DNA from: Candidatus Uhrbacteria bacterium RIFOXYB12_FULL_58_10
Lineage (GTDB): Bacteria; Patescibacteriota; Patescibacteriia; UBA9934; GWF2-40-263
DNA: 64,000 nt
NCBI GenBank assembly: GCA_943354165.1
Contig: CALRBH010000001.1
Span: 80,828-144,827 of the forward strand
Reading direction: 5' to 3'
The translations under genes and the position numbers were made by a program. Positions 19,976-63,498 of the stretch are shown here, piece after piece; the stretch's first letter is position 1, and each line of letters starts with the position of its first letter. The notes under the pieces were generated by a model. It had not been told where the DNA came from and did no database searches. It saw only the letters and a program-made list of their open reading frames with translations.

Positions 19976-21198
19976 CCGTCCTTCAAGCGCATAAATTTTA
20001 TTTTCCACGCGGCGGGGCGGAGACGTATCTCTTCGCGCTGTCCGAATATTTAGCGTCGCGCGGGTCAACGGTCGTTCCGTTCGCGATGCAACATCCGGGG
20101 AATCGGCAAACTCCATATTCGCACTATTTCCCTCGGTTCGTTCCTACGGAAAAAGTGAAGATGTCGCCGGCGGGATTGCGTACCGTAGGCCGGATGTTTT
20201 ATAGCTTCGAATCTAAGCGCCAGATGGAGCGATTGTTACGGGACGTCCCCATCGACGTCGCCCATATCCATAATCTGTACACGCAGCTGTCCCCATCGAT
20301 CCTTACTCCGCTCCGGAAGAGAAAGATTCCGACGGTGATGACGGTGCATGATTATCACCTGGTGACTCCGCACTATGCACTTCCGCTTGCCGGGCAGGCC
20401 GTGGACGTTTCTCGTGTGGGAGCATTGCGCGCGGCGCAGACGAAGTTTCATAAGGACTCAATGGCCGCAAGTTTTCTGCAAGCCGCATCTTATCGATTCA
20501 CCCGCCGCTGGAGATTTTATGATCGTGCCATTTCGCTCTTCATCGCTCCGAGTGAATTCATGGCGGCAAAACTGCGCGCGTCCGGATATGACAAGGATCG
20601 CATTCGCGTAATCCATTACGGCATCGACACGCGGACGATCGAACCTCGGTTCGGACACGATGGATATTTTCTGTTCGTCGGAAGGCTCTCGGAAGAGAAG
20701 GGGGTCGATACGGTGCTTGAGCTTGCGCATCGACTTCCGGATCTAAAGTTTAAGATTGTCGGGACCGGGCCAGATGAGGCGTTATTGCACTCCGTTGGCG
20801 ATCGACTTCCGAACGTCGAGTTCATGGGATACCAGCAAGGCCAGCGGTTGCGGGATCTGTACCTTGGTGCCCGGGCGGTATTAGTGCCTTCCAGGTGGGA
20901 GGAGCCTTCCGGTCTGGTTTTGCTTGAGGCCCAGGCCTGTGGAAAACCTGTGATTGCGAGCCATGCCGGTGGCATCCCGGAGGCCATGGAAGACCGCAGG
21001 AGCGGGTTTCTGGTCCCACCGCTTGATATCCACGCCTGGACCGAGGCCGTGCTGCGCCTCGCCTATGACGACCGGTCACGCGAAAAGATGGGCAGGGACG
21101 CCAGAACCCTTATGGAAGACCGGTTTTCGCTCAGGGCCCATTACGAGGCTGTGGAGCATGTTTATGCTGAGGCAATACGATTAGGGGGTAGTGCGTAG
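19972..21198 (+). CDS. glycosyltransferase family 4
   Basis: GGAE, FVGRLSEEKG, PSRWEEPSGLVLLEA..GKPVIAS..GGIPE. Confidence 0.93.
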   Translation: MTVLQAHKFYFPRGGAETYLFALSEYLASRGSTVVPFAMQHPGNRQTPYSHYFPRFVPTEKVKMSPAGLRTVGRMFYSFESKRQMERLLRDVPIDVAHIHNLYTQLSPSILTPLRKRKIPTVMTVHDYHLVTPHYALPLAGQAVDVSRVGALRAAQTKFHKDSMAASFLQAASYRFTRRWRFYDRAISLFIAPSEFMAAKLRASGYDKDRIRVIHYGIDTRTIEPRFGHDGYFLFVGRLSEEKGVDTVLELAHRLPDLKFKIVGTGPDEALLHSVGDRLPNVEFMGYQQGQRLRDLYLGARAVLVPSRWEEPSGLVLLEAQACGKPVIASHAGGIPEAMEDRRSGFLVPPLDIHAWTEAVLRLAYDDRSREKMGRDARTLMEDRFSLRAHYEAVEHVYAEAIRLGGSA

Positions 21199-21215
21199 TG
21201 TGTAGGGGGTAGGAA
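21181..21215 (+). repeat. G-rich heptamer half-array overlapping a stop codon
   Basis: TTAGGGG GTAGTGC GTAGTGT GTAGGGG GTAGGAA. Confidence 0.75.
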
Positions 21216-21290
21216 AAAAGGGCTCTATTTAGCTAAATAACTGTTGAAATGGCTTGACAAAAAGCCATTTTTTTGCTATTCTGCGCAGTT

Positions 21291-22463
21291 ATGAAAATCG
21301 CCATGATCGGATCAAAGGGGATTCCCGCCGCCTCCGGAGGAGTGGAGCGGCACGTGGAAGAGCTCTCAACGGAGCTCGTAAAGCTGGGACATGATGTCCT
21401 GGTGTATTCTCGTGCTTGGTATACGGGCGTAAACAAGCCTCGTTTTTCGCATCGCGGGGTGACCTGCGTTTCCGTTCCGTCATTGCGTACGAAGCACTTC
21501 GATTCCATTACTCATACGTTTGCCTCCATTGTGGCAGCGGCTCGTGAAGGGGTGGACGTGTTCCATATCCACGGCGTCGGTCCCGCTTTGCTTTCTTGGC
21601 TTCCTAAGCTGTTGCTTCCGTCCGCCAAGGTGGTTGTGACCTTCCATTGCATTGATCGCCATCATGAGAAATGGGGATGGATTGCCCGCTTCATGCTCCG
21701 CACCGGCGAATGGGCCGCAGTCCGTTTTCCGGACGCGACCATCGCGGTTGCAAAGTCTCTTCAGGATTACTTGCGCCTCACCTATGCCACCCACACCATG
21801 CATGTGCCTAACGGTACCCGCATGCCGGAGGGGGAAGGGGACGCGACCAAGCTCTCAAAGTTTGGACTTGAAAAGGGAAAGTATCTGATGTTCTGCGCCC
21901 GCCTCGTCCGTCACAAGGGGGCCCATGTTCTCGTGGAAGCCTGGAAGCTTCTTTGTAAGGAGCGTCCGGACCTCACGGACGGAATGAAGCTTGCGATTGT
22001 CGGAGGCTCGGCGTTTACGGACGGGTATGTCCGCGAACTCACGGAGCTTGCGAAGGGCGATGAGTCCATCGTTCTCACTGGTGCCCAGCATGGCGAGGAC
22101 CTGCATGCGCTCTTCAGCCATGCGTACGCCTTCGCCCATCCATCGTCTTCTGAAGGGTTGCCGATCTCGGTCCTCGAAGCGATGTCCTACGGCAAGTGCG
22201 TGGTCGCCGCAGACATTCCGGAATCGCGCGAAGTCGTGGAAGGCCACGGTCTCACCTTCAAGGTGGGGAACGTGGAAGACCTTGCCCGCAAACTCGCGAT
22301 GGTGATTGAAAGCCCGGACCTCGCCGCCTCCGTCGGGTATGACGCCCGCGACTTCGTGGCGCGACAGTACGACTGGGACAACATTGCCGAGACCACCAGC
22401 TACCTGTATGAGGCGCTCCAGTTCGAGCCTCGCGTACAGGTCCGGCCAGTTGCCGGGCGATAG
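21291..22463 (+). CDS. glycosyltransferase family 4
   Basis: MKIAMIG.KGIP..GGVERHV, ARLVRHKG, EGLPISVLEAMSYG; promoter TTGACA(21254)-17-TATTCT. Confidence 0.93.
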   Translation: MKIAMIGSKGIPAASGGVERHVEELSTELVKLGHDVLVYSRAWYTGVNKPRFSHRGVTCVSVPSLRTKHFDSITHTFASIVAAAREGVDVFHIHGVGPALLSWLPKLLLPSAKVVVTFHCIDRHHEKWGWIARFMLRTGEWAAVRFPDATIAVAKSLQDYLRLTYATHTMHVPNGTRMPEGEGDATKLSKFGLEKGKYLMFCARLVRHKGAHVLVEAWKLLCKERPDLTDGMKLAIVGGSAFTDGYVRELTELAKGDESIVLTGAQHGEDLHALFSHAYAFAHPSSSEGLPISVLEAMSYGKCVVAADIPESREVVEGHGLTFKVGNVEDLARKLAMVIESPDLAASVGYDARDFVARQYDWDNIAETTSYLYEALQFEPRVQVRPVAGR

Positions 22464-22466
22464 CCG

Positions 22467-22497
22467 AAAACACCCCCGCAGTTGCGGGGGTGTTTTA
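22467..22497. terminator. bidirectional terminator between convergent genes
   Basis: AAAACACCCCCGCA-GT-TGCGGGGGTGTTTT. Confidence 0.85.
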
Positions 22498-22816: not shown

Positions 22817-22829
22817 AGGGTCTTTGTGG

Positions 22830-22874
22830 GGCTGTAAAGGCAGTAAGGGCTGTAAAGGCGGTAAGGGGATGAGG
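22830..22874 (-). repeat. nonamer tandem array in the 5' leader of the HTH gene
   Basis: Plus strand GGCTGTAAA GGCAGTAAG GGCTGTAAA GGCGGTAAG GGGATGAGG. Confidence 0.85.
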
Positions 22875-23003
22875 TTGTTTGGATACACCAGTGTAGCCAA
22901 ACAGAAGGACTTTCGTCAATCAAGGCTTGATAAAAATCACGATTTCGGCTAAGGTTAGCCATCGCTAAATATACATGTAAGACTTTGTCTTTTTCTGCAT
23001 CAT

Positions 23004-28989: not shown

Positions 28990-29235
28990 ATGGTAAAGCA
29001 AAAACTTTCAGCCAAAGTGGATCGTAAAACGATTATCCACGCCGTTGACCAACTCTCTCCAGATCGTGCGAGGATCGCGGTGGATTTTTTGGAGTTTCTC
29101 CATCAGAAAGATGCTGAATGGGATGCAACTACAGAACTCCTTTCGGATAAAAAGTTGATGAGCGATATCGCCACCGCAAGAAGGGATGTGGCAAAAGGAA
29201 TCGGACTCTCGTCTTGGCGCAAAACATCTGCGTAA
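28990..29235 (+). CDS. putative type II antitoxin
   Basis: 81 aa; EWDATTELLSDKKLMSDIATARRDV resembles antitoxin C-termini; 1 nt upstream of a RelE-like gene. Confidence 0.75.
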   Translation: MVKQKLSAKVDRKTIIHAVDQLSPDRARIAVDFLEFLHQKDAEWDATTELLSDKKLMSDIATARRDVAKGIGLSSWRKTSA

Positions 29236-29236
29236 T

Positions 29237-29494
29237 ATGTTCGAGGTCCAGCTTCATATAAAAGCCAGGAAATCATATGAACGGCTTCCAAAACAGGCCG
29301 TTCTTCTTGTTGATCGCGGATTTGCTCTTCTTGAGTCGGATCCGTTTTCCGGGCCACAGATTAAACGTCTGCACGGTCCACTTGCCGGGCTATATCGTTT
29401 ACGGGCTGGAAGATATCGTATTGTTTATCAGATCATAAATGATCATCAAATAGTCGTAGTTCTTGTCATTGGCTCAAGAGAGAGTGTGTATTAA
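29237..29494 (+). CDS. RelE/ParE family toxin
   Basis: IKRLHG..LYRLRAGRYRIVY.I...VVVLVIGSRESVY. Confidence 0.92.
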   Translation: MFEVQLHIKARKSYERLPKQAVLLVDRGFALLESDPFSGPQIKRLHGPLAGLYRLRAGRYRIVYQIINDHQIVVVLVIGSRESVY

Positions 29495-29565
29495 TAAGGT
29501 TTGCCATTTCGCCCACATTTCGCTAAGATTCCGCAACGAATGTAATGATTGATCGATATCCCTGT

Positions 29566-30288
29566 ATGTCTAAGCAGATCCGGCCGAAAACGCTTCTAAC
29601 TGCCCTTGCCGCCGTCATTGTGATTGTGGTTGGCGGGATGTGGTACGACCGCTCCACAAATCTTTCTCAGGATACGACTTCTAAGCAGATTATCGTTGAT
29701 ACCGTGGATCGCGGGATGTCGCCGGAACAGCGCGATACGTTTTATAAAAAAATTGCGGAACTTCAGGTACAGATCGCAGACGATGCCAATGAAGGCAAAC
29801 GCGATATCAGCAAAATCCTCCAGCTCGGAAACATGTTTTACACCGCCGGGGAACTCGCTCAGGCGAACGAGCAATACAAGGATATTTTGCGCACCAACCC
29901 TACGGACACTCCGGCTATGGAGAATATGGGACAGTCTCTCATGGAAATGGGGGACTATGAGGGAGCGGCCGCTCTTTGGGTGAGGTCGCTTAATATTTCT
30001 GCCAATGAGCAGATCTACATTAAACTTGTGGACCTCATTACGGAGCGTCTTCCCGCCAAGAATGCGCGCATTCAGGAGATCCTTGAATCCGCCATTGCCA
30101 ACATCGGCCAGACCCCAACGCTTCTCAAACGTCTCGCGCAGTGGTACGGGGAAAATGGAAAATACGAGGAGGCCATTTCTCATTACGAGGTCGCCCAGAA
30201 GCTGAACCTCAAGGACACCAGCATTAAGGAAGAGATAGACGCTCTGCGTCTGAAGCAGGCTCAAGCACTGCGATTACAGGAACGGTAA
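29566..30288 (+). CDS. membrane-anchored tetratricopeptide-repeat protein
   Basis: N-terminal TM; LGNMFY..GE..A, MGDYEGA and GKYEEAI TPR-like units. Confidence 0.8.
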   Translation: MSKQIRPKTLLTALAAVIVIVVGGMWYDRSTNLSQDTTSKQIIVDTVDRGMSPEQRDTFYKKIAELQVQIADDANEGKRDISKILQLGNMFYTAGELAQANEQYKDILRTNPTDTPAMENMGQSLMEMGDYEGAAALWVRSLNISANEQIYIKLVDLITERLPAKNARIQEILESAIANIGQTPTLLKRLAQWYGENGKYEEAISHYEVAQKLNLKDTSIKEEIDALRLKQAQALRLQER

Positions 30289-30293
30289 TAATT

Positions 30294-30324
30294 CTCAAAC
30301 TCCCCTCCAGCAGGGGAGTTTGAG
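30294..30324 (+). terminator. terminator after the TPR gene
   Basis: CTCAAACTCCCCT-CCAGC-AGGGGAGTTTGAG. Confidence 0.75.
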
Positions 30325-30351
30325 TTTGCTTCATGTTATAATAGCAAAATT

Positions 30352-32403
30352 ATGCGTCGCCTTCTTACCCTTACCGCCCTTACAGCCATTACCGCCCTTA
30401 CCACCCAACCCGCACTCGCAGCCATCCCGAACGATCCTCTCATTGAACAGCAATGGTACCTGGCCAAGGTTCAGGCATTCAACGCATGGGACCACGGGAC
30501 GGGAACGGATGACGTCGTCGTTGCGGTGCTTGATACGGGTATTGATCTTGATCATCCGGATATAAAAGAGAATCTTTGGCGTAACGAAGGAGAGGTGAAA
30601 GGCGATGGGATCGATAATGATCAGAATGGTTTTGTTGACGATACGAACGGTTGGGATTTCATTGATGGGGACAACAGTCCGACTCCTTCCGCCGTGAACG
30701 CGCCGAGCGATGACGCGGTCGTGCATGGAACCGTCATTGCCGGAGTTATCGCCGCTGTTGGAAACAACGGGGAAGGGATCGCCGGGCTCAACTGGAAGGC
30801 GAAGATCATGCCGGTCCGCATCCTGGACCAATTCGGTTCCGGGACGAGCGAGGGAGCGCGTAAGGCCATCGAATACGCCGTGGCCAATCATGCCGACGTC
30901 ATTAATTTGAGTTTTACCGGATTCGAAGTCGACGAGGTCTTTAAGGACGTGGTTCACCGCGCGTACCAGGCAGGGGTGATTGTTGTTGCGGCTGTGGGGA
31001 ATAAAAGCGGCGGGGGAGTGAACCTGGACGAGACACCCGTGTATCCGGCCTGCTTCATGGGACTCGATGGGGACTGGGTGCTCGGTGTCGCCGCGACCAC
31101 TCGTCAGGACACCAAGGCTGGATTTTCAAACTACGGTTCGACCTGTACGGACATCAGTGCACCTGGGATCGAAGTGTTTGGCACGTCTTTTCAGGATCCG
31201 ACGGTAAACGGGTTTGGCCAGGCTTATCTTGGCGGATGGGCAGGTACATCGATTGCGTCTCCGATGGTGGCTGGCGCGGCTGCGCTGCTTAAGGCCAAGT
31301 ATCCGTTCATCACGCCAACGCAGGTAAAAACTGCATTGCAGCTTTCCGTGGATCCGCTTGCGGAAGTTGGGACGCCTGCCGCGGGGAAACTCGGTGCGGG
31401 TCGGCTGAACGTTGCTCGGGCGTTTGAGGTCGCGGGACAGTTTACGTTTGGGACGTCTTTGCCGATTCCTTCAGGACCCGCACCGGCAGTTCTCCCACCC
31501 CCTCCAACTCCCCCTCCGGGAGGGGGAGGGTTCGAGTCTGTTCGGATCGTCCTTGCGGCTGGGCCGGGTGCTGCGCCTCGAGTTCAGGTTTTTGATGAAG
31601 GCGGGCATGCGTCTGCATCGTTCTTGGCGTATGCCGAGGCGTTTAAGGGCGGCGTGCGCGTTGCGGCTGGCGATGTGGATGGGGACGGCGTCATGGAAAT
31701 CATCACGGTGCCCGGGCCAGGTGGCGGTCCGCACGTGCGTATCTTCACTCTTTCTGGCACGGTGAAAGGACAGTTTTTTGCCGGGGACAAGGCTGACCGG
31801 CGCGGATTAAACGTGTCGGTTGCGGATGTGGACGGCGATTTGAAATGGGAGATTATCACCAGCACGGAAGTGGGCGGGCTTGGGGAGGTGAACGTCTTTA
31901 CCATGGACGGAACTCGGCTTTCGAGCTTCAAACCGTTTCCAGGATCCAAGGAAGCGATTCGTGCGACGGGCGTGGACGCGGATGGAGATCGGCGAGATGA
32001 GATTGCCGTAGCGCTCGGCGCCGGGGCGAAACCGGAAGTGCGATTGTTTAGTTCCACCGGTTCGCTGAAGAAGAGTTTTCTTGCATATGGGGCAGGGTTC
32101 CTTGGCGGGATCTATTTGACTGCCGCGGATCTCGATGCAGACGGCAGCGAGGAAATCGTTGCGGGAACCGGGACTGGAGGAGGACCGCAGGTGCGGACGT
32201 TCACCGGCAAGGGTGCCGTCGTGGATTCTTTCTTCGCCTTTGACGCCACGCACCGCAAAGGGGTGATGGTCGCGGGGGCGGGCACGTTCCTTGTGGCCCT
32301 TGAAGGAAGCAGCGGAGCTGTGAAGCTCCTGAATCGCAAGGGACAGACCATGGGCGGATTCGATGTCCTCCCGGGCAATTATTCATTAGCTGTCCTTGAA
32401 TAA
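30352..32403 (+). CDS. S8 (subtilisin-like) peptidase with C-terminal FG-GAP-like repeats
   Basis: Catalytic triad VAVLDTG / HGTVIAG / GTSIASP; GGVRVAAGDVDGDG repeats. Confidence 0.93.
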   Translation: MRRLLTLTALTAITALTTQPALAAIPNDPLIEQQWYLAKVQAFNAWDHGTGTDDVVVAVLDTGIDLDHPDIKENLWRNEGEVKGDGIDNDQNGFVDDTNGWDFIDGDNSPTPSAVNAPSDDAVVHGTVIAGVIAAVGNNGEGIAGLNWKAKIMPVRILDQFGSGTSEGARKAIEYAVANHADVINLSFTGFEVDEVFKDVVHRAYQAGVIVVAAVGNKSGGGVNLDETPVYPACFMGLDGDWVLGVAATTRQDTKAGFSNYGSTCTDISAPGIEVFGTSFQDPTVNGFGQAYLGGWAGTSIASPMVAGAAALLKAKYPFITPTQVKTALQLSVDPLAEVGTPAAGKLGAGRLNVARAFEVAGQFTFGTSLPIPSGPAPAVLPPPPTPPPGGGGFESVRIVLAAGPGAAPRVQVFDEGGHASASFLAYAEAFKGGVRVAAGDVDGDGVMEIITVPGPGGGPHVRIFTLSGTVKGQFFAGDKADRRGLNVSVADVDGDLKWEIITSTEVGGLGEVNVFTMDGTRLSSFKPFPGSKEAIRATGVDADGDRRDEIAVALGAGAKPEVRLFSSTGSLKKSFLAYGAGFLGGIYLTAADLDADGSEEIVAGTGTGGGPQVRTFTGKGAVVDSFFAFDATHRKGVMVAGAGTFLVALEGSSGAVKLLNRKGQTMGGFDVLPGNYSLAVLE

Positions 32404-32420
32404 GGTACAATGTCCCCACT

Positions 32421-33431
32421 ATGCCAACCCAACCATTTGAAAAGAAAAACGTGCTTGTCACCGGCGGGGCCGGGTTCATCGGATCCCATCTCTGCGAACG
32501 GCTGCTCATGGATGGCCATCGCGTGATCTGCTTGGATAACTTTTCCACCAGTCACGTCCGTAATATCAACGACCTGCTTTCGAATCCAAACTTTCAGTTC
32601 CTCCGCCTCGACATCAACGAGCCGATGAACCTCGAGCAGTACACCGAGCTGTCCGGATTCAAGCTTCCGTTCCAGGGGATCCAGGAGATCTATCACTTGG
32701 CGTGTCCGACATCGATTAAACAGTTCGACCAGTTCCGTGCGCAGACGCTGCTCGCCAGTTCCGTGGGCACGTACAATGTACTTGAGCTCGCCCGGAAATA
32801 TCGCGCGAAGATTTTGCTGTCGTCGAGTTCGGTCGTCTACGGATCGCGACGCAAGGAACATCCAGTTGTCGTGGAAACGGATTTGGGAACGGTTGACCAG
32901 CTCTCCCCCCGCGCCTGTTACGATGAAGGCCGCCGGTTTTCGGAAACCATGTTTGCCACCTACCAGCAGGTGCACGGGCTTGAGACGCGCATCGCGCGCA
33001 TCTTCCGCACGTATGGTCCTCGCATGCCGCTTTTTGACGGCCATCTCATTCCGGATTTCGTCCTCAACGCCCTCGAAGGGAAAGATCTGGTGGTATACGA
33101 CCATGGAGGATTCCACTCGTCGTTCGTCTTCGTGACGGACGTCGTGGACGCGCTCGTCCGCCTTATGGGCACGCCGACCGATCCGGGTCCCGCCAACGTG
33201 GGAAGCGACGTCGACATGCTTGTGGACGATGTCGCGGCGATGATCGTCAAGCTGACGGAATCGACTTCGCCGGTAAAGCAAGGCGAGGACCTTCTGTTCC
33301 TCTCGGAGCTTCCGATTCCAAACATTGACCGCATGCGCGAGATTGGATGGTTTCCGATCGTGCGGCTGGAGGACGGGCTTGAGAAGACGGTCGAATACAT
33401 GAAGGCGAATCGGCTGCTCTTGAGCGTGTAG
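32421..33431 (+). CDS. NAD-dependent epimerase/dehydratase, UDP-glucuronate decarboxylase-like
   Basis: VTGGAGFIGSHLC, IYHLACP, PRACYDEG, RIARIF.TYGPRM. Confidence 0.88.
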   Translation: MPTQPFEKKNVLVTGGAGFIGSHLCERLLMDGHRVICLDNFSTSHVRNINDLLSNPNFQFLRLDINEPMNLEQYTELSGFKLPFQGIQEIYHLACPTSIKQFDQFRAQTLLASSVGTYNVLELARKYRAKILLSSSSVVYGSRRKEHPVVVETDLGTVDQLSPRACYDEGRRFSETMFATYQQVHGLETRIARIFRTYGPRMPLFDGHLIPDFVLNALEGKDLVVYDHGGFHSSFVFVTDVVDALVRLMGTPTDPGPANVGSDVDMLVDDVAAMIVKLTESTSPVKQGEDLLFLSELPIPNIDRMREIGWFPIVRLEDGLEKTVEYMKANRLLLSV

Positions 33432-33458
33432 GGCGTAGTGTGTAAGGTATAGGAATCT

Positions 33459-34124
33459 ATGCGAGTTATCGCGGTTATTCCTTGTTATAACGAGGCAAGC
33501 GAGGTGGGACGGGTCGTGCAAACGGTCCGTTCCTTTGTCGCACAAGTGATCGTGGTAGACGACGGCTCTAACGACGCGAGTGCAGAAGAAGCGCGCAAGG
33601 CCGGAGCGGTGGTGGTGCAACATGTCATCAACCGCGGATTGGGCGCTTCGCTCGGCACTGGGTTTGCCGCCGCTCTCATGAACGGCGCGGATGCCGTGGT
33701 CACGTTGGATGCCGATGGTCAGCACGACCCGTCGGAAATCCCGTCGCTCGTCGCGGCGCTTGAAGCTGGGGCAGATGCGGCGCTCGGATCGCGCATGCTT
33801 ACGCGCACGGGGATGCCGGCGCGCCGCCAGTTCGCGAACACGCTTGGAAACGTCCTTACGTTTCTCTTGTTCGGCTCATGGGTCACGGACAGCCAGTCCG
33901 GATACCGCGCGATCAACGCATCGACGCTTGCGAAGATGGATCTCAAGACCAACCGGATGGAAGTGTCCTCGGAAATCATCGCCGAGCTTTGCCGTGTAGG
34001 CGCGTGCGTCGTCGAGGTTCCCATCAAGGCGATCTACACGGAGTATTCGCTTTCCAAGGGGCAGAACTGGTTTGTCGGAATTAAAACCGCGATCAAGCTT
34101 CTTCTTCGCCGCCTCTCCTCGTAA
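33459..34124 (+). CDS. GT2 glycosyltransferase, DPM1-like
   Basis: IPCYNE, VVDDGS, NRGLG, TLDADGQH, TDSQSGYR. Confidence 0.92.
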   Translation: MRVIAVIPCYNEASEVGRVVQTVRSFVAQVIVVDDGSNDASAEEARKAGAVVVQHVINRGLGASLGTGFAAALMNGADAVVTLDADGQHDPSEIPSLVAALEAGADAALGSRMLTRTGMPARRQFANTLGNVLTFLLFGSWVTDSQSGYRAINASTLAKMDLKTNRMEVSSEIIAELCRVGACVVEVPIKAIYTEYSLSKGQNWFVGIKTAIKLLLRRLSS

Positions 34125-34126
34125 CT

Positions 34127-34477
34127 ATGTCGTTCACCCTCATCCAAATCATTCTCATCGGCGTTGCCTTGCTCGGAGCGTTCCGTACTGTGCGACAGTT
34201 TAGGGCCGGCCGCGTGCCACCCGCCTGGCTCGCCTTTTGGGGAGCGTGCTGGACGGCACTCGCGGTCGTCGCCTTCATTCCGCAGACGACCGACATCGCG
34301 GCGAACATTTTCGGCGTCGGCCGCGGAGTTGATCTTGCGGTGTACGTTTCCATCGTTCTTCTGTTCGCCCTCTCCTTCAAGCTCCTCATGAAGATCGAGG
34401 ATCTTGAGCGCGACATTACCAGGCTCGTCCGCGCGCTCGCCCTTAAGGATTCCGATAAGACTGATCATGTCGCCTAA
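34127..34477 (+). CDS. DUF2304-like small membrane protein
   Basis: 3 TMs; GVGRGVDL and ITRLVRALAL; follows a DPM1-like GT2. Confidence 0.85.
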   Translation: MSFTLIQIILIGVALLGAFRTVRQFRAGRVPPAWLAFWGACWTALAVVAFIPQTTDIAANIFGVGRGVDLAVYVSIVLLFALSFKLLMKIEDLERDITRLVRALALKDSDKTDHVA

Positions 34478-35546
34478 GGTTTCCATCGTCTACCTTTCGT
34501 ACAACTCCGTCCCGTATCTCCCGGACGTCGTGGACGCATGGGTAAAGATCGACTATCCGCGCGAGTCTCTTGAAATCGTGATCGTCGATAATGCGTCGGC
34601 CGACGGGAGCGTGGCGTGGATTCAGGAACATGTTCTTCCTCGGTCCGGTGCAGGTCTTCCCTCAATCATCTTTTTTTCACAGAAGGAGAACCTCGGATTT
34701 GCGGGTGGGTGCAATATTGGGATGGAGTACGCCATAGCGAACGGCGCTTCGTACGTCTATTTGCACAACAACGACTTGAAGCTCGATTCGGCTTCCATGA
34801 AGGAAGCGGTTTCACTCGCGGAATCAGATGCGTCCATCGGGTCCGTGCAGTCGCTCATGTGCCTGTGGCAGGATCCCTTGCGGGTTAATTCGACGGGAGG
34901 CATGGTGCACTTTCTTGGATTCGGGTTTGTGCGCGACAACGGACGGCTGCTTGCTGACTGTTCCGTTACGGATGGCGGGGAGATCGCGTACGGAAGTGGG
35001 GCAGCGACGCTCTACCGCTCTTCGTGTTTGAAAGAAGTTGGCCTGCTCGATTCGTTCTTGTGGCTCTATCACGAAGATTTGGAACTTGGCTGGCGCTTGC
35101 GGTTGGCCGGATTCAAGAACGTGCTTTCGACGAAATCGATCGCGTACCACAAGTACGAATTTCGTCGATCGACTTCGAAGATTTTTTGGATGGAGCGCAA
35201 CCGACTGCTCGTTCATCTTTCGCTATTGAAGCCTGGAACGATTATTTTGCTTGCGCCGTTTCTTTTGGCGCTTGAACCGGCTCTCATTCTGTTTTCCATC
35301 AAGGGCGGATGGTGGAAAGAAAAGTTCCGCGCGCTCGCGGCATTTTTCTCGCCGAAGCTCTGGACGTACCTGTACGAAAAACGAAAAGAAGCCCGGATGC
35401 TGCGTCGGGTGTCCGACCGAGAGATTGTAAGGATGTGGACGGGGAAGATCGTTCATCAGGAAACCTCGAATCCGCTAGTGGACCGGTTCGCGAATCCGGT
35501 GCTTGGTGGCGTCTGGGAGGTTTTGAAGAACCTGATAGTATGGTGA
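34467..35546 (+). CDS. GT2 glycosyltransferase (rhamnosyltransferase-like)
   Basis: VDNASADGS, NLGFAGGCN, LHNND, GLLD.FLWLYHEDLELGWR. Confidence 0.9.
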   Translation: MSPKVSIVYLSYNSVPYLPDVVDAWVKIDYPRESLEIVIVDNASADGSVAWIQEHVLPRSGAGLPSIIFFSQKENLGFAGGCNIGMEYAIANGASYVYLHNNDLKLDSASMKEAVSLAESDASIGSVQSLMCLWQDPLRVNSTGGMVHFLGFGFVRDNGRLLADCSVTDGGEIAYGSGAATLYRSSCLKEVGLLDSFLWLYHEDLELGWRLRLAGFKNVLSTKSIAYHKYEFRRSTSKIFWMERNRLLVHLSLLKPGTIILLAPFLLALEPALILFSIKGGWWKEKFRALAAFFSPKLWTYLYEKRKEARMLRRVSDREIVRMWTGKIVHQETSNPLVDRFANPVLGGVWEVLKNLIVW

Positions 35547-35657
35547 GATTGTAGATGTTTAGAGTGGGCAGGGTTTGCAGGGTGGGCAAGGGTGTAGGAA
35601 ATTTTTATAAAAAGCCATTCCATCACCCCGCCCATCCTTGCCCACCCCACAAACCCC
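35545..35657. repeat. inverted nonamer arrays, empty element
   Basis: AGTGGGCAG GGTTTGCAG GGTGGGCAA; central TTTTTATAAAAA; CGCCCATCC TTGCCCACC CCACAAACC. Confidence 0.75.
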
Positions 35658-35666
35658 TCGATTCCT

Positions 35667-36845
35667 ATGAAAATCGCCCAGGTCGTCTCAACATATCCTC
35701 CCTATCATGGCGGCATGGGCCGTGTGGCGTTTGAATATACGGAACGTTTGCGGGCACACGGGAACAATGTCCACGTGTTCACGCCGCAGTATCGGAATGG
35801 TGGAGACCCCACTTCGCCAAGGCTTCGAGGGGCAGGAGATCCGGAGTATGTTCATCGCGTGCCGTCCCCGCTTACGGCGGGGAATGCGGGCGTAGTGCCG
35901 TCGCTTTTCAACCGCATGAAAGGGTTCGATGTCGTGCATCTCCATTATCCTTTTTTTGGCGGGGCCGAACCCGTTATTATTCGGAAAGCAATACGGGACG
36001 ATCAGGCGCTCGTGATGACCTATCACATGGACGCCGTGGCAGATGGCGTGCGCGGCGCCATATTTGAAGCGCATCGCCGACTGTTGTTTCCGTGGATCGT
36101 CGGACGCTGCGATCGCATCCTCGTAAGTTCCAAGGAGTATGCGCAGTCCTCTTCGCTCTCTCGCGTGCACGGAGCGCTTGAGAAGGTGGAGATCCATCCG
36201 TTCGGGATCGACCTGCAGCGATTCTCTCCCGGGAGCGAACCGGAGTTGCGCGCGCAGCTCGGGATCACGGAAGCGGTTCCTCTGATTATTTTTGTCGGCG
36301 GGTTGGATACGGCACATCACTTTAAAGGATTACCCGTGCTGCTTAAGGCTCTTGAAACTCTTTCTGCGACGAAGTGGCATCTTCTTGTGATCGGTGACGG
36401 GGACATGCAGCCTACGTTTCAGGCGAACGTGTCTGCTGGCGCCATCAAGGATCGCGTGACGTTTCTTGGAAACGTGACGGACGAGGAGCTTCCGCGCTGG
36501 TACCGTGCGGCGGACCTTCACGTGTTTCCGTCCACGGAGCGCGCAGAGGCGTTCGGGCTCGTGGCGCTCGAGGCCGCCGCGTCCGGCATTCCGTCCATCG
36601 CGTCCGCGCTTCCCGGCGTTGCTTCCGTCGTACTCGATGGAGAGACGGGGATGCTTGTCCCCCCAAACGATGCGACCGCGCTCGCGAAGGCGATCGAACT
36701 TCTGTTGCTTCGGGCCGACGTGCGCGAACGTTTCGGCATGGCCGCGCGCAAACGCGCGGAAGCGGATTTCGCGTGGGGGCCGATCATTTCGAAGCTTGAA
36801 GGGACCTACCGCTCGCTGCTCGCTACACGAACCATGCGCGTATGA
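35667..36845 (+). CDS. glycosyltransferase family 4
   Basis: YPPYHGGMG, FVGGLD..H.FKG, EAFGLVALEA. Confidence 0.92.
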   Translation: MKIAQVVSTYPPYHGGMGRVAFEYTERLRAHGNNVHVFTPQYRNGGDPTSPRLRGAGDPEYVHRVPSPLTAGNAGVVPSLFNRMKGFDVVHLHYPFFGGAEPVIIRKAIRDDQALVMTYHMDAVADGVRGAIFEAHRRLLFPWIVGRCDRILVSSKEYAQSSSLSRVHGALEKVEIHPFGIDLQRFSPGSEPELRAQLGITEAVPLIIFVGGLDTAHHFKGLPVLLKALETLSATKWHLLVIGDGDMQPTFQANVSAGAIKDRVTFLGNVTDEELPRWYRAADLHVFPSTERAEAFGLVALEAAASGIPSIASALPGVASVVLDGETGMLVPPNDATALAKAIELLLLRADVRERFGMAARKRAEADFAWGPIISKLEGTYRSLLATRTMRV

Positions 36846-40858: not shown

Positions 40859-40897
40859 ATGGTCAGAGTGTACCGTGTGCACGTCTCCTAGTCACTC

Positions 40898-44596: not shown

Positions 44597-44793
44597 AACC
44601 GTTCACGCTTCGTCTCATCGCTACGTTGTTCCGCGTAAGTGCCCTCTCGTACGTTTTATTCTGGGCGGCAGATGCGATGAGGCCAGGGTTTGTGTCACGA
44701 TACGTCTCCGTCCACTTGTTCGGGTTGCTTGCGCTTGTGTTCGGAACCCTTTTTGCGGTATATGGAGAGGACGTTGGGGGTCGTAGTAAGTAG
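44593..44793 (+). CDS. small membrane protein
   Basis: 66 aa, two hydrophobic segments around PGFVS; stop codon lies inside the heptamer array. Confidence 0.65.
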   Translation: MKPFTLRLIATLFRVSALSYVLFWAADAMRPGFVSRYVSVHLFGLLALVFGTLFAVYGEDVGGRSK

Positions 44794-44816
44794 TTAGTAG
44801 ATAGTAGTTAGTAGGT
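44782..44816 (+). repeat. left heptamer array of the four-helix-bundle element
   Basis: GTAGTAA GTAGTTA GTAGATA GTAGTTA GTAGGT directly before ATG. Confidence 0.95.
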
Positions 44817-45182
44817 ATGGATGATGATTTGCGCAGGGATAAACGTTCATATAAAGATTTGACGGTTTGGCAGAAGTCCATGGATTTGGTTGTGCTTATC
44901 TACGAACTGACAAAAGATTTTCCTGCCGATCAGAAATTTAGTCTTGTGAATCAGATGCAGCGTGCGGCTGTCTCTGTGCCGTTGAATATCGCGGAAGGTT
45001 CACGTAGACGAAGTGAAGCAGATAATATTCGTTTTCTCCGCATCGCGTTTGGATCAGCGTCTGAACTCGAAACCCAGATCCTTATCTCTCAACGTCTCCG
45101 GTTCGGTCATTCTGAGAAATATTCAGGCATAAAAAGCTTGCTTATAGAGGTTCTCAAGATGCTAAACAAAATGTCAGAATGA
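44817..45182 (+). CDS. four helix bundle protein (23S rRNA IVS-protein / Avd-like family)
   Basis: SYKDLTVWQKSMDL..IY..TKDFP...FSLVNQMQRAAVSVPLNIAEG..R...FLRIAFGSASELETQI. Confidence 0.95.
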   Translation: MDDDLRRDKRSYKDLTVWQKSMDLVVLIYELTKDFPADQKFSLVNQMQRAAVSVPLNIAEGSRRRSEADNIRFLRIAFGSASELETQILISQRLRFGHSEKYSGIKSLLIEVLKMLNKMSE

Positions 45183-45187
45183 CCGTA

Positions 45188-45222
45188 ACCCTACTTTCTA
45201 CTTACTACTATCTTCTAACTAC
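45188..45222 (-). repeat. right (inverted) heptamer array
   Basis: ACCCTAC TTTCTAC TTACTAC TATCTTC TAACTAC. Confidence 0.9.
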
Positions 45223-45228
45223 ACCCAT

Positions 45229-45645
45229 ATGTCTGACTGTATTTTCTGTAAAATCATTGCGGGGGACATTCCTGCCATAAAGATTCATGAGGACGAGCAG
45301 TGCATTGCATTTCTCGATATCCATCCAGTGAACCCTGGGCACACGCTGATCGTTCCGAAGGAACACCATGCAAATTTTCTTGAGACGCCTAAGGAACTCG
45401 TGGCGGTGATCATGGCGCTCGGACAGAAGCTTTCGCCGGCCATCCTTAAAGCCGTCGGTTCCGATTCGTTTAATTTTTCTACGAACAACGGCCGCGCAGC
45501 AGGACAGTTGATTGCTCATACGCATTTTCACCTGATCCCGCGCTTTCCGGCAGACGGCCATAAGATGTGGCATGGGTCTGACGAGCATCAGGATTTTGCG
45601 GCGATGGCCACGAAGATTCGAGAGGCAGTAGGCAGTGGGGAGTAG
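45229..45645 (+). CDS. HIT family hydrolase
   Basis: CIFCKII, AFLDIHP..PGHTL..PK, GQ...HTHFHLIPR. Confidence 0.95.
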   Translation: MSDCIFCKIIAGDIPAIKIHEDEQCIAFLDIHPVNPGHTLIVPKEHHANFLETPKELVAVIMALGQKLSPAILKAVGSDSFNFSTNNGRAAGQLIAHTHFHLIPRFPADGHKMWHGSDEHQDFAAMATKIREAVGSGE

Positions 45646-45654
45646 GAAGTAGAT

Positions 45655-46593: not shown

Positions 46594-47423
46594 AGATCCT
46601 GATTTTCGGAAAGGGATTTGTGGGCAATCGCTGCGCGTCCGCCTGGCCGGATGCGGTGCTTTCGGACGTACGCGTCTCGAATAAAGAGGAAGCGCTCGCG
46701 GAAATCAAGCGCGTACAGCCTGATGCGGTGTTGAATGCCGCTGGTGTGAAAGGGAAACCGAACGTGGACTGGTGCGATACGCATCAGATGGAAACCATTC
46801 TCGGCAACACGCTCGAACCGATCGTTCTCGCGCAGGCGTGTCAGGAAGTGGGCGTCTATCTTCTGCACATCGGATCCGGTTGCATCTTTTACGGTGACTC
46901 TCCGCATCCGGACAAGACGTGGCGTGAAGACGATTTCGGGAATCCGCGCCCTACATATAGTCGCGCTAAGTGGGCGGCGGATCTTGTGCTGTCGACATTG
47001 CCGAATGTGGCCATCGCGCGCATTCGCATGCCCATCGATCATGTTCGGAATTCCGGAAACCTTTTGCAAAAGCTCGCGGCGTACCCGAAGGTCATCGACG
47101 TCGAAAATTCGATTACGGTTGTAGATGACATGGTGTCCGTTTTCCGTCAGCTCATGGAAAAGAAGGCGCCGGGGATTTTTCATGTCACGAATCCAGGCAC
47201 AGCTCGCCACCGCGAGATTCTTGGATTGTATAAAGACCTTGTTGACCCGAATCATTCCTGTGAATGGATTTCTGAAGAGGATCTCGTGGTCCAGGGTCTG
47301 GCAACAAAGAAGCGTTCAAATAATTTTCTCGCTTCAACGCGCCTTGCCGAGGTTGGCATCGCGATGCGACCCGTGAAAGAGGCGTTGCGGGATACGGTTG
47401 AAAAATACGCGCGGGCCAAGTAA
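46590..47423 (+). CDS. NDP-4-keto-6-deoxyglucose 3,5-epimerase/4-reductase-like (NRS/ER, RmlD fold)
   Basis: NAAGVKGKPNVDWCDTH, IGSGCIF, YSRAK, RIRMPI. Confidence 0.8.
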   Translation: MKILIFGKGFVGNRCASAWPDAVLSDVRVSNKEEALAEIKRVQPDAVLNAAGVKGKPNVDWCDTHQMETILGNTLEPIVLAQACQEVGVYLLHIGSGCIFYGDSPHPDKTWREDDFGNPRPTYSRAKWAADLVLSTLPNVAIARIRMPIDHVRNSGNLLQKLAAYPKVIDVENSITVVDDMVSVFRQLMEKKAPGIFHVTNPGTARHREILGLYKDLVDPNHSCEWISEEDLVVQGLATKKRSNNFLASTRLAEVGIAMRPVKEALRDTVEKYARAK

Positions 47424-47435
47424 GGTTTGCCCGTT

Positions 47436-48521
47436 ATGAAAGCCCTGATTGCGGCGGGAGGCCGGGCCACGCGCCTGCGTCCCATCACCTGGACCATCAA
47501 CAAGCACCTGATCCCGATGACCAACCGGCCCATGTTGGCGCACGCGATCGACAAGATCGTGGAGGCGGGGATCACGGACATCATCGTGAGCGTGAATCCC
47601 GGCGAGACGGATTCCATGAGAGCGGCGCTCGGCGACGGGTCCGCATGGGGAGCCCGACTTACGTATCTCGAGCAGCGGGGCGGAGCGCTCGGTGTCGCGC
47701 ACGTGGTCGCAAACGCGGAGGATCTTCTGCGAGGAGAGAAGTTTTTGTTTTATCTCGGCGACAACATTATTCTCGGCAGCCTCAAGAAGTTCGTCGACCG
47801 TTTTCTCGACGAAGAGCTCGACTGCATGCTCGCGTTCTCTCGCGTGAAAGATCCGCAGCGATTTGGTGTTCCAGAATTTGCTGAAGACGGAAAAACGTTG
47901 CTTCGCGTGATTGAAAAGCCGGCGCATCCGCCTTCGGACTTTGCCGTTACCGGCATTTATCTTTACAACGACCGCTACTTTGACGGGTTCTTTTCCATCA
48001 AGCCGTCCTCACGAGGAGAATACGAAATTTCCGATGTGAACTCCTGGTTCGTGGAGAACGGAAAGGTGGGTTATGAGGAAATTACCGGATGGTGGAAGGA
48101 TACCGGCACGCCGGACGCGCTTCTCGAAGGGAACGCGCTCATGATGGACGACATGCCGCGCGAGCAGTTCCGTGTGGACGTGGACGTTCCGGATTCCGCC
48201 CAGGTTCAAGGACTCGTGAAGATCGGCAAGGGAACCGTTATTGGCGAGAAGGTGCTTATTCGCGGGCCGGTCGTCATTGGCGAGCATTGTCAGATCGACA
48301 ACGCCTACATTGGTCCTCATACTTCCATTGGTGATGGCGCCTCCGTAAAAAATGCGGAAGTGGAACACTCGATCATTTTTCCAGGCGCCTCGATTGATAC
48401 CAAACGTCGCATCGTAAGCAGCCTTATCGGAAAAAACGCTATCGTACACGATGCCGTTCAGACCCTTCCGCGTTCAGGATCCAGACTGGTGATTGGGGAC
48501 AGTAGTTCCGTTGAGCTGTAA
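47436..48521 (+). CDS. rfbA: glucose-1-phosphate thymidylyltransferase, long form
   Basis: AAGGRATRLRPIT..NKHLIP, YLGDN, PSSRGEYEISD, WWKDTG; C-terminal hexapeptide domain. Confidence 0.92.
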   Translation: MKALIAAGGRATRLRPITWTINKHLIPMTNRPMLAHAIDKIVEAGITDIIVSVNPGETDSMRAALGDGSAWGARLTYLEQRGGALGVAHVVANAEDLLRGEKFLFYLGDNIILGSLKKFVDRFLDEELDCMLAFSRVKDPQRFGVPEFAEDGKTLLRVIEKPAHPPSDFAVTGIYLYNDRYFDGFFSIKPSSRGEYEISDVNSWFVENGKVGYEEITGWWKDTGTPDALLEGNALMMDDMPREQFRVDVDVPDSAQVQGLVKIGKGTVIGEKVLIRGPVVIGEHCQIDNAYIGPHTSIGDGASVKNAEVEHSIIFPGASIDTKRRIVSSLIGKNAIVHDAVQTLPRSGSRLVIGDSSSVEL

Positions 48522-62437: not shown

Positions 62438-62439
62438 CT

Positions 62440-63399
62440 ATGAAGCTCTCGCCTATTGCGATCTTGGTTGCAATTTGCGTGAGCCTCGCCGCTCTTGCGG
62501 TTTGGGCCATGCCTCAAGTGGAGCCGCGCTGGGGCGTGACGTTTTCCACCAAGTATTCTCGCGAGCTCGGGTTGAATCCGGAAACCGTGTTTTGGGAGGT
62601 GGTGAACGACCTGAACGTCCGTGCAATCCGGTTGCCCGTGTATTGGGATGAGGTGAATCCACAATTCGACGTTTGGAATTGGCAGCCGTACGACCATCTG
62701 GTTGAAATGGCCGATGAGAAGGGGGTCGCCCTCACGCTTGCGGTGGGAATGAAGACGCCGCGCTGGCCGGAATGCCATGTTCCAGAATGGGCCGCCTCCA
62801 TTTCCTCCATCGATTCATTCGACAAGCAGCGATCCGCCTACATCGATGCGGTTATTAAACGATACGACGGACACGTCTCCGTGGAGCGGTATCAGATCGA
62901 GAATGAGCCGTTGTTTCCGTTTGGTGAGTGTCCGGGTTCCAGCATCGAGCGGCTGGAAGAAGAAGTGCATCGTGCGAGGCTTGTGACGACGAAGCCAATA
63001 CAAATCACGGCGAGCGGAGAATTCGAGCTCTGGAGCCGTGTGGCCCCTCTTGTCGATGTCCTTGGCGTTTCCCTTTATCGCATTTCCTGGAACGATGCAT
63101 ACGGTTTTTTTCGCTATCCCATTCCCGCCGCGTATTACCGATTACGGGCTATGGGTATCCAGCGTCCGGTTATTATTTCCGAGCTTCAGGCCGAGCCGTG
63201 GTTTCCCGTCTCCATTGAGAGTCACCCCGCCTCTTATTGGGCGCAGCTGTTCACGTCCAATGATTTCCGCGACCAGGTCCGCTTTGCCCGCCGGACCGGA
63301 TTGTCCGAAGCGTATCTTTGGGGGGTGGAGTGGTGGTACTATTTGCGTGCTCACGGATATCCAGAGCTTTGGGACGCTGCGCGTCCTCTTTGGCGGTAA
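62440..63399 (+). CDS. clan GH-A-like glycoside hydrolase
   Basis: IRLPVYW, PRWPECH.P.W, QIENEP (acid/base), ISELQAEPW (nucleophile). Confidence 0.8.
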   Translation: MKLSPIAILVAICVSLAALAVWAMPQVEPRWGVTFSTKYSRELGLNPETVFWEVVNDLNVRAIRLPVYWDEVNPQFDVWNWQPYDHLVEMADEKGVALTLAVGMKTPRWPECHVPEWAASISSIDSFDKQRSAYIDAVIKRYDGHVSVERYQIENEPLFPFGECPGSSIERLEEEVHRARLVTTKPIQITASGEFELWSRVAPLVDVLGVSLYRISWNDAYGFFRYPIPAAYYRLRAMGIQRPVIISELQAEPWFPVSIESHPASYWAQLFTSNDFRDQVRFARRTGLSEAYLWGVEWWYYLRAHGYPELWDAARPLWR

Positions 63400-63498
63400 G
63401 GGCGGTTAGGGTTGTAAGGGGAGTAAGGGATTTTCCTTTCGCTCTATTCGTTCTGTCGCCCTTACCGTCCATTACCACCCTTACAACCCTTACCACCC
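63392..63498. repeat. inverted nonamer arrays, empty element
   Basis: GGCGGTAAG GGCGGTTAG GGTTGTAAG GGGAGTAAG ... CTTACCGTC C ATTACCACC CTTACAACC CTTACCACC. Confidence 0.92.

Follow-up and report, generated by a model that had tools for sequence, protein, structure and literature searches.

Tandem repeat arrays at gene junctions of a Candidatus Uhrbacteria genome are arms of purine-first hairpins, likely gene-less copies of a four-helix-gene cassette

Introduction

Arrays of short tandem repeats lie at gene boundaries along a 64,000-nt stretch of Candidatus Uhrbacteria bacterium RIFOXYB12_FULL_58_10 (GCA_943354165.1, CALRBH010000001.1, positions 80,828-144,827 of the forward strand; the window). 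A preliminary description had reported a strict polarity of these 7-mer and 9-mer arrays, with a G-rich arm over the upstream stop codon, a C-rich arm ahead of or in the next gene, and no array in the opposite orientation relative to transcription. From this bias it had argued for an RNA-level mechanism. Does the polarity of the arrays reflect transcription, and what are the arrays? We analyzed these questions in the genome holding the window (G000, 98% complete) and in relatives including G041 and G001.

Results

All arrays listed in the preliminary description were recovered, and 286 arms were catalogued genome-wide, a count from which very decayed arms may be missing. A k-mer scan of G000 returned 284 arms at a score of at least 40 and 0 in one block shuffle; G041 has ~220 arms. 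The number of units is ~4-4.5 throughout, with arm length rising from 31 to 35-39 nt as the period increases, and both unit number and unit sequence vary among arrays. Six main families (7a, 7b, 7c, 9a, 9b and 9c) account for 98 of the 101 pairs in G000. The 9-mer families have G-tracts; 7a, the commonest 7-mer family, and 7b are without G-runs.

Three gene-less hairpins are complete in the window, all on the plus strand. The first consists of a purine-rich 7a arm (6026..6060) with the smpB stop (6028-6030) inside it and a complementary pyrimidine-rich arm (6076..6113), and fills the gap between smpB and the tmRNA gene (6128-6528); its RNA fold z is -7.4 on the plus and -6.8 on the minus strand. 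In the second, of the 9/10-mer family 9c, the purine-rich arm (35561..35594) begins 14 nt after the stop at 35544, and the complementary arm (35624..35657) ends 9 nt ahead of the ATG at 35667. At this junction G001 has a 4-nt gap and G041 a different repeat family. The third belongs to 9a, with a stop (63397-63399) inside the purine-rich arm (63391..63433) and the complementary arm (63457..63500) 15 nt upstream of the ATG at 63516.

Other arms stand alone. Purine-rich plus-strand arms of the minor 7-mer family 7g span the GT4 stop (21196-21198; arm 21182..21213) and cover the stop at 33429-33431 (arm 33423..33450), in the latter case with the next ATG (33459) close downstream. A solo purine-rich arm of minor 7-mer family 7e (45623..45652, plus strand) codes for the end of the HIT protein and contains its stop (45643); 25 nt of it are absent from a contig of a related strain. 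Note that the G-rich arms at 33423 and 45623 also lie ~8-15 nt upstream of the following ATG. Two solo arms belong to 9a. One (22828..22878), in a divergent gap, is pyrimidine-rich on the minus strand, 11 nt upstream of the minus-strand ATG at 22816; the other (30358..30411, plus strand) is pyrimidine-rich and lies in frame within a subtilase signal peptide (start 30352), which is 2 residues longer than its G001 counterpart, and no more.

The remaining pair in the window encloses a gene. The purine-rich 7a arm (44781..44816, plus strand) contains the stop (44791) of a conserved 66-residue gene and abuts the ATG of a four-helix-bundle gene encoding 121 residues (44817..45182, plus strand; PF05635/TIGR02436). 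The pyrimidine-rich arm (45190..45223, plus strand) closes this copy 7 nt past the four-helix stop, and the ATG of the HIT gene (45229) follows 5 nt on. The closest solved structure to the 44817-45182 product is XCC0516 (2GSC; sequence match E 1.9e-24). XCC0516 is a homopentamer, and Avd is a pentameric RNA-binding relative.

The proposed polarity holds in part. A stop lies inside the G arm at 6028, 21196, 33429, 44791, 45643 and 63397, whereas at 35544 it precedes the arm by 14 nt. The C arm at 6076 precedes a tmRNA gene rather than a start codon, and the one at 30358-30411 is inside a gene. The statement that no array is oppositely oriented is incorrect in the window itself, as the G arm at 44781-44816 meets the four-helix ATG, the C arm at 45190 follows the four-helix stop, and the solo G arms at 33423 and 45623 come shortly ahead of a start codon.

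We next consider the order of the arms. Among neighbours within 120 nt in G000, purine-then-pyrimidine order was found 91 times and the reverse 0 times; in G041 the purine arm was first in 52+26 cases versus 0. The AG/GA-rich arm came first in 133 of 133 motif-free pairs from three genomes, and this was the sole rule without exception. G-rich-first order, as previously described, held for 77 of 89 motif-free pairs, purine-rich-first order for all 89. Each element is an imperfect palindrome, with a purine-rich tandem arm ahead of its reverse complement. A palindrome with this fixed order reads the same on both strands, and therefore places a G arm after a stop and a C arm before a start on either strand. 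Thus, the stop/start polarity is a by-product of hairpin symmetry and placement. As the gene-boundary pattern is, moreover, already published for Xanthomonas, Nostoc and Beggiatoaceae, the polarity provides no evidence for an RNA mechanism. The purine-arm-first order is a constraint for any proposed mechanism.

Regarding placement, the median distance of outer arm ends is -1 nt to stops and 11.5 nt to starts. Pairs occur in every gap type without significant bias (p=0.61 and 0.24); copies are also present in divergent and convergent gaps, ahead of tRNA and tmRNA genes, and within genes on either strand. The strand-sensitive tests were null genome-wide, at odds with a strict polarity to transcription. 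Gene-less copies had their intrinsic orientation with transcription in 23 cases and against it in 27 (50 of 68 orientable, p=0.67), RNA folding was no better on the transcribed strand (sense versus antisense 38:37, n=76), and arms within genes showed little strand bias (20:16). Some orientation bias survives. Of 41 solo intergenic arms without ties, 31 have their outer end nearer a gene (p=0.0015), and gene-carrying copies are co-oriented with their neighbours (91 versus 6). Among 38 co-directional solo arms, 26 carry the pyrimidine-rich sequence on the sense strand (p=0.03). Family 7a may also lean one way relative to transcription (24:13 by spectral orientation, p=0.10; 18:5 among confident calls). 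Spectral orientation resolves the 7a loops poorly, with two close eigenvalues and agreement in 529 of 755 pairs, and orientation was therefore redone against the gene-carrying copy, giving 11:17. Of 96 empty pairs, 16 have the GG(A)n(T)n motif described before for complete pairs, or the complement of this motif, near the centre. This count is within the range of 500 shuffles (mean 8, maximum 17), and the motif is therefore not a general feature.

To which genes do the families belong? Profile search found exactly six TIGR02436 genes in G000, and a separate main family brackets each of these genes. Five are enclosed by a single arm pair, and the 7c copy has a hairpin on each side. All six sit between protein-coding genes, with the purine arm directly upstream of the four-helix gene's own ATG. 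The seven minor families, each of up to 8 arms, are without a gene-carrying copy. In G041, each of the five motif-free families with at least two pairs has a single gene-carrying copy; a sixth family, seeded from the remaining gene-carrying copy, comprises 79 arms. These six families differ from those of G000. Two exceptions occur in G041: a minor family that has no gene, and a weak PF05635 match that has no arms. The earlier suggestion of one cognate protein per repeat class thus stands in modified form, with one four-helix gene per family and not per period; the small genes enclosed by 9-mer pairs are the four-helix genes of 9a, 9b and 9c. It is likely that each four-helix protein recognizes the repeat of its own family.

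Inverted arms were found at 77 of 93 family-level four-helix loci and at 64 of 80 loci across many phyla. Repeat period tracks the protein tree (a quick tree of 125 columns), with 9 changes versus at least 21 in 500 shuffles, a result that co-inheritance alone predicts. Arms resembling 7a flank proteins of a different clade in two genomes (G047 and G076). DNA searches for 7a- and 9a-like copies covered 73 genomes, with at most 12 candidates scored per genome, so that these are not copy numbers. Dispersed copies have non-repeat loop sequence in common, and on visual comparison the loops of empty 9c and 7b copies are similar to the cargo gene's leader and trailer.

Other types of cargo were considered and rejected. 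Small genes beside arms in 20 chosen G000 regions were read as housekeeping genes; from their translations, we take them to include groES, rplL, rplK, thioredoxin, grpE and pth. The profile search gave no match to PF13366, and none in G000 to the Y1 transposase family PF01797.

Comparison of relatives showed extensive turnover. Among 316 orthologous junctions, 53 had an element in G000 alone and 44 in G041 alone, and the 29 occupied in both genomes mostly held different families; 97 of the 126 occupied junctions were thus occupied in one genome only. Sharing was nevertheless above chance between G000 and G041 (odds ratio 2.4, p=0.004) and with part of G001 (odds ratio 8.3, p=0.003), a pattern that selection for a hairpin at the shared junctions would also produce. 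The four-helix gene beside the HIT gene was absent in 29 of 29 relatives.

We also searched for traces of mobility. Flanking direct repeats of at least 4 nt were present at 6 of 94 empty pairs versus 4.9 expected, and of at least 6 nt at 0, although old insertions could have lost target-site duplications. G000 encodes four reverse transcriptases, none adjoining any of the six four-helix genes. No reverse transcriptase was detected by HMM or tblastn in G041 (two contigs, rated 100% complete, nearly all searched), nor was one found in G088 or G058, which have 6 and 5 PF05635 matches, respectively. Joints skipping 44814-45190 were considered as signs of excision at this site and rejected, as their short side has just 26-30 letters and fits empty copies elsewhere. 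Of 22 RNA runs listed, all contigs, four were compared with positions 4300-7000 and four with 29000-47500 of the window. The contigs X5 and X6 stay within the tmRNA body; none bridges the hairpin, and they have no bearing either way on processing.

Discussion

The arrays are arms of dispersed purine-first palindromic hairpins, and we estimate a probability of roughly 0.6 that these hairpins are gene-less copies of a selfish four-helix-gene cassette, one gene per family. By homology, the four-helix protein would be a homopentamer. The pentamer may bind the four-to-five-unit purine-rich arm, as ssRNA or ssDNA, with about one unit per subunit. Binding would let hairpins of the protein's own family be copied to new sites via host recombination or repair, without target duplication. 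Selection would then retain copies mainly at harmless sites, namely gene junctions and, for 9-mers, in frame in variable loops, and gene-carrying copies would be retained only where host transcription runs through.

Alternatively, the hairpins may be selected RNA regulatory sites, with the four-helix paralogue binding the nascent purine arm before the complementary arm exists and thereby controlling stem formation, RNase III cutting or translational coupling, as well as its own translation. Such a role would account for the purine arm being first in all 133 pairs, the close spacing of outer ends to stops and starts, the re-use of the same junctions across genomes, and the co-orientation of cargo genes with a purine arm immediately before their own ATG. 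An RNase III gene is present in G000, and in vitro the enzyme cleaves the stem of the related IVS from Coxiella (PMC4990558). Nevertheless, we consider regulation rather unlikely as the primary explanation: most occupied junctions hold a hairpin in just one of the two genomes, families have been exchanged at those that are shared, the transcribed strand folds no better, and gene-less copies occur in both orientations. Copies are also present between divergent and between convergent genes, ahead of tRNA and tmRNA genes, and within genes on either strand. In the study of Rehm et al., similar repeats showed no regulatory role (PMC4692102).

RNA-templated synthesis, offered in the preliminary description as one origin of the arrays, appears improbable. 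Here an Avd-like four-helix protein would bring a diversity-generating-type reverse transcriptase to hairpin RNA, in line with the four reverse transcriptases of G000 and with Avd being a pentamer similar to S23 proteins and a partner of the retroelement enzyme (10.1101/2023.10.23.563531). The proposal is weakened because G041 has ~220 arms in six families and no reverse transcriptase, recent enzyme loss being possible, and also by G088 and G058, by the distance of the six genes from any reverse transcriptase and by the lack of strand bias. Least probable is an origin of the arrays by local slippage, with retention for G-quadruplex or hairpin structure and no partner protein, as considered for the Xanthomonas and Nostoc repeats (PMC4692102): variable units and the G-tracts of 9-mers would fit, but not the common loop sequence, the absence of G-runs in 7a and 7b or the one-to-one family-gene match in two genomes, and the fixed arm order would be left without a reason.

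Returning to the selfish cassette, we tentatively extend it to PF05635 proteins in general. Such proteins may act as rings that read specific sequences, every one of them matched to a purine-first hairpin family of its own. Gene and hairpin would then make up a selfish element, free of transposase and reverse transcriptase, that repopulates gene junctions one family at a time. In G000, a small genome, the six main repeat families pair one to one with six paralogues of a widespread protein of unknown function. This pairing makes a 6 x 6 binding test of PF05635 possible and suggests a testable origin for the dispersed 7- to 9-mer repeats that two papers left unexplained.

Among known systems, REP/REPIN elements with their RAYT gene share the overall arrangement of a gene flanked by its own repeat family and many dispersed gene-less hairpins in intergenic space. 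In contrast, no Y1 transposase was found in G000 (98% complete), the arms here are tandem arrays, and the flanked gene is without a known catalytic site. Avd of diversity-generating retroelements forms a pentameric barrel similar to S23 proteins and binds RNA (bioRxiv 10.1101/2023.10.23.563531). By analogy with XCC0516 and Avd, the four-helix proteins here may be homopentamers that bind nucleic acid. The six genes differ from Avd in not lying beside a reverse transcriptase, which the repeat-rich relative G041 lacks altogether.

The G-rich heptamers of Xanthomonas and Nostoc (Rehm et al. 2015, PMC4692102) have about four units, are intergenic and form convergent pairs, with the G-rich strand after stops and the C-rich strand before starts, all of which is found here. 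There, one family per genome was described and read as possible G-quadruplexes, whereas G000 has six main families of 7-mers and 9/10-mers, each tied to one gene. The main text of that paper mentions neither xcc0516 nor S23 nor four-helix proteins. Heptamer direct repeats of two to six units occur in Beggiatoaceae, Cyanobacteria and Bacteroidetes in fixed orientation just before start codons, in a genome with few Shine-Dalgarno sites, and in some cases in reverse orientation past stops; the author proposed a cognate regulator and named S1, Csp and CsrA as possible binders (MacGregor 2015, PMC4679880). Those are single-orientation direct repeats, whereas the elements here are mostly complete hairpins with a candidate protein gene between the arms. 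A literature search of main texts, with few subscription journals among them, turned up no study that connects four-helix-bundle genes with dispersed repeat families.

The 23S rRNA intervening sequence of Coxiella with its S23p gene is similar, as a terminal stem encloses a PF05635-type gene and purine-rich tandem heptamers immediately precede the ORF (PMC4990558). Likewise, a PF05635/TIGR02436 ORF enclosed by complementary termini is present here. The Coxiella element sits in rRNA and is cut out by RNase III, whereas none of the six four-helix genes of G000 is in an rRNA gene, and about a hundred gene-less hairpins accompany them. If PF05635 proteins do read purine-first hairpins as rings, the heptamers of Xanthomonas, cyanobacteria and Beggiatoaceae and the rRNA intervening sequences would be one system.

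Repeat families and their four-helix-bundle genes

All of the 7- and 9-mer arrays named in the preliminary description exist in the window. We analyzed them across the source genome, G000 (852.5 kb in 24 contigs, rated 98% complete), of which the window is C1:80828-144827. Genes were called by our own hexamer model, ARAGORN and gap filling (smpB and tmRNA patched in; start positions approximate). TRF at a score of at least 36 returned 137 period-7 and 123 period-9 rows, with 9 rows of period 6 and 4 of period 8. A scan with repeat units gave 214 tandem arrays (arms) and data-derived k-mer profiles gave 284 (score at least 40), with none in shuffled sequence in either case; the merged catalogue holds 286 arms. 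After addition of five weak partners, the genome contained 101 pairs of a purine-rich and a complementary pyrimidine-rich arm (96 empty, i.e. gene-less, and 5 long) and 89 solo arms. A motif-free scan found 89 pairs in G000, 38 in the relative G041 and 6 in 358 kb of the relative G001, and none in any shuffle. Both strands of the window's three empty pairs fold strongly (z -3.4 to -7.4).

Six main families (7a, 7b, 7c, 9a, 9b and 9c) account for 98 of the 101 pairs. G000 encodes exactly six PF05635/TIGR02436 four-helix-bundle proteins, and each gene is bracketed by arms of a different main family, that of 7a at window 44817-45182. The suggestion that each repeat class has a cognate protein is supported at a finer level than proposed, with one gene per family and not per period; the small genes enclosed by 9-mer pairs in G000 are the PF05635 genes of 9a, 9b and 9c. 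G041 shows the same kind of match with six other families. Seven minor G000 families (up to 8 arms each) are without a PF05635/TIGR02436 gene. In G041, each of the five motif-free families with at least two pairs has one gene-carrying copy (52 pairs in the correct order, 0 reversed). A sixth (79 arms; pairs 26 versus 0 in order) was seeded from the arms of another gene-carrying copy and is not an independent find; G041 also has one minor family with no gene and, among its PF05635 loci (7 located, 8 counted), one weak match with no arms. The 9c gene and its G041 sister (tree support 97) occupy the same junction. The loops of these two copies are related, their arm units differ, and the empty copies match the local version. 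At G000:C10:8658-9240 and G041:C1:776143-776706, a complete hairpin lies on either side of the four-helix gene, in place of one enclosing arm pair.

Repeat period tracks the protein tree, with 9 changes over 63 labelled rows (500 shuffles: mean 27.5, minimum 21). Such agreement would also arise, without recognition, if gene and arms were inherited together. The window protein (44817-45182) matches XCC0516 (structure 2GSC; E 1.9e-24), described as a homopentamer of four-helix bundles, and Avd, a similar pentamer, is reported to bind RNA (bioRxiv 10.1101/2023.10.23.563531). TRF gives median copy numbers of 4.4 (7a), 4.3 (9b), 3.9 (9a) and 3.3-3.6 (9c and 7c). These pentameric relatives and copy numbers suggest a ring that may read about one repeat unit per subunit.

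The minor family 7g (window 21182 and 33423) is mostly solo in G000 and resembles F0, a common complete family of G001 and G041; in the tree, the G041 protein bracketed by F0 falls together with the 7a protein of the window (support 86). A change of repeat unit, after which the old family decayed, would fit this pattern. Right after a solo 7g arm, window:21246-21282 carries a sigma-70-like promoter (10/12 matches) and, overlapping it, an inverted repeat of 10 pairs; the GT4 gene downstream is inverted in G001.

Arm order and polarity relative to transcription

Same-family neighbours at most 120 nt apart in G000 run from purine to pyrimidine in 91 cases and in reverse in none. The first arm of motif-free pairs is purine-rich in 89/89 (G000), 36/38 (G041) and 6/6 (G001). 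G exceeds C there in only 77 of 89 G000 pairs, while AG/GA exceeds CT/TC in all 133 pairs of the three genomes. Since the order purine arm-loop-pyrimidine arm is retained upon reverse complementation, an element filling a gap shows the purine arm next to a preceding stop and the pyrimidine arm ahead of a following start, on either strand. The stop/start polarity is therefore mostly the symmetry of the hairpin. G000 pairs lie a median of -1 nt from the stop (77/94 within 15 nt) and 11.5 nt from the start (56/100 within 15 nt), and at 25 of the 40 stop sides of 7a the arm includes the stop codon. Plus-strand, minus-strand, divergent and convergent gaps hold 52, 28, 10 and 7 pairs (background gaps 455, 220, 106 and 106; p = 0.61 and 0.24 for bias), with two further pairs inside genes and two at the ends of contigs.

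The preliminary description held that G-rich arms follow stops and C-rich arms precede starts strictly with respect to transcription, and deduced an RNA-level mechanism. The pattern is real; its strictness was not upheld by the strand tests, the solo arms or the cargo genes. Oriented against their family's gene-carrying copy, empty copies genome-wide run 23 with and 27 against transcription (p = 0.67; 50 of 68 co-directional copies orientable). Clustering-based orientation gave 8:6, 5:3, 3:2, 2:2 and 3:3 in five families and 24:13 in 7a (p = 0.10; 18:5 among confident calls), so 7a may have a lean. Among 76 folded RNAs, the sense strand was stabler in 38 and the antisense in 37 (p = 0.44), i.e. 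no strand preference.

Solo arms (87 of 89 taken; two singletons of unrelated type dropped) are pyrimidine-sense in 20 and purine-sense in 16 cases inside genes, and in 26 and 12 cases in co-directional gaps (p = 0.03). The strict rule is broken: of the 26 pyrimidine-sense arms in such gaps, 13 are at most 15 nt from the upstream stop, and 4 of the 12 purine-sense arms are equally close to a start. Ties aside, 31 of 41 arms have the outer end as the one closer to a gene (p = 0.0015), as expected for hairpins after loss of one arm.

Viewed from the cargo gene, polarity runs the other way: of 77 family-level loci whose inverted repeat is significant, 74 have more G than C in the upstream arm. 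The family-level set comprises 93 loci, the six own and 87 drawn from the 184 matches in 73 relatives' genomes, with L102, L117 and one duplicate left out. In a many-phyla set of 80 loci the count is 55/64. Cargo genes face the same way as the upstream neighbour in 6/6 cases in G000, and by 91 versus 6 in a crude open-frame test (168 loci, 71 uninformative). This co-orientation is the clearest tie to transcription.

Two placements and the start context are recorded here. smpB and the tmRNA gene are adjacent on the plus strand (window:5515-6528), separated by a 7a hairpin, and RNA-run contigs contain the tmRNA body only; a 9a hairpin (G000:C6:18382-18484) starts 5 nt past the stop of a gene with an RNase III match. 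T is at -1 in 71% of 472 G000 ATG starts without a nearby arm, upstream of which Shine-Dalgarno-like 5-mers are not dominant.

Turnover at shared sites

The window's junctions are in G001 and G041 either empty gaps or occupied by a different family. The 9c gap at 35546 measures 120 nt in G000 and 4 nt in G001, and in G041 the site has an 87-nt hairpin from a different family; rfbB and the next gene overlap in G000, with a hairpin there in both relatives. Among 316 orthologous junctions, 53 are occupied in G000 only, 44 in G041 only, 29 in both and 190 in neither (odds ratio 2.4, p = 0.004), those occupied in both mostly by different families. The 1.5 kb around the HIT orthologue are free of four-helix genes in 29 of 29 relatives. 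A strain ~86% alike (one contig) keeps the cassette and lacks 25 nt of arm at 45620-45650; one ~91% alike keeps the smpB-tmRNA hairpin.

In-gene arms sit in variable loops, with a median net gain of 2.5 residues per 13-residue arm relative to G041 (26 alignable) and five near-full insertions. The same protein loops seem to be reused by different repeats. At G000:C8:3265, C10:25308 and C12:17701, loops hold in-frame arms where G041 or G001 appear to hold other repeat-derived peptides.

Several other repeats were noted. A different short repeat (window:44372-44395), in frame in a 491-residue gene, has 13 genome-wide copies at up to 2 mismatches, and a similar insert occurs at window 33763 in a related strain. 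At window:39840, within the minus-strand gene 38696-40732, two related strains have contigs with an insert of 35 nt that is self-complementary. Period-6 Gly-Glu coding repeats in two neighbouring predicted secreted proteins (window:15195-15269 and 16162-16211) have no relation to the 7/9-mer families. In G041:C1 (L168), a ~45-nt unit stands three times in tandem upstream of the subtilase orthologue; G001 has one copy.

Possible mechanism

We favor, with a probability of roughly 0.58, a selfish cassette of which the arrays represent copies that lack the gene. In this reading, the gene product, a pentamer, would attach to the purine-rich arm of its own family and promote copying of the hairpin through host recombination or repair, with landing sites filtered by selection; binding and copying are steps that we infer. 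A second reading, tentative and clearly less probable, is a domesticated regulator at the RNA level that acts on the purine arm while the stem is still open: it would account for the fixed arm order and the re-use of junctions between genomes, but not readily for the swapping of families at sites, lineage-specific occupancy or the absent strand bias. The selfish cassette and such a regulator are compatible. Insertion driven by reverse transcriptase fits worse than both and is improbable; four reverse transcriptases are present in G000 and none was found in G041. We found no Y1 transposase in G000 and no excess of flanking direct repeats around empty pairs. Plain slippage repeats, which also fit worse than both, are the least probable.

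Comparison with known repeats

The feature is real, and the polarity claim is partly right and largely known already. In Xanthomonas and Nostoc, the same placement at stops and starts, a preference for four units and convergent pairs were described by Rehm et al. 2015 (PMC4692102), who in the passages concerned name neither a function nor a partner gene. Our literature search found no paper tying these repeats together with the oriented heptamers ahead of start codons (MacGregor 2015, PMC4679880) and the S23p-bearing IVS of Coxiella, in which purine-rich heptamers lie 5' of the S23p gene inside a stem cut by RNase III (PMC4990558). To these descriptions the present analysis adds the polarity test, the purine-first rule and the one-to-one match of repeat family and gene in two genomes.
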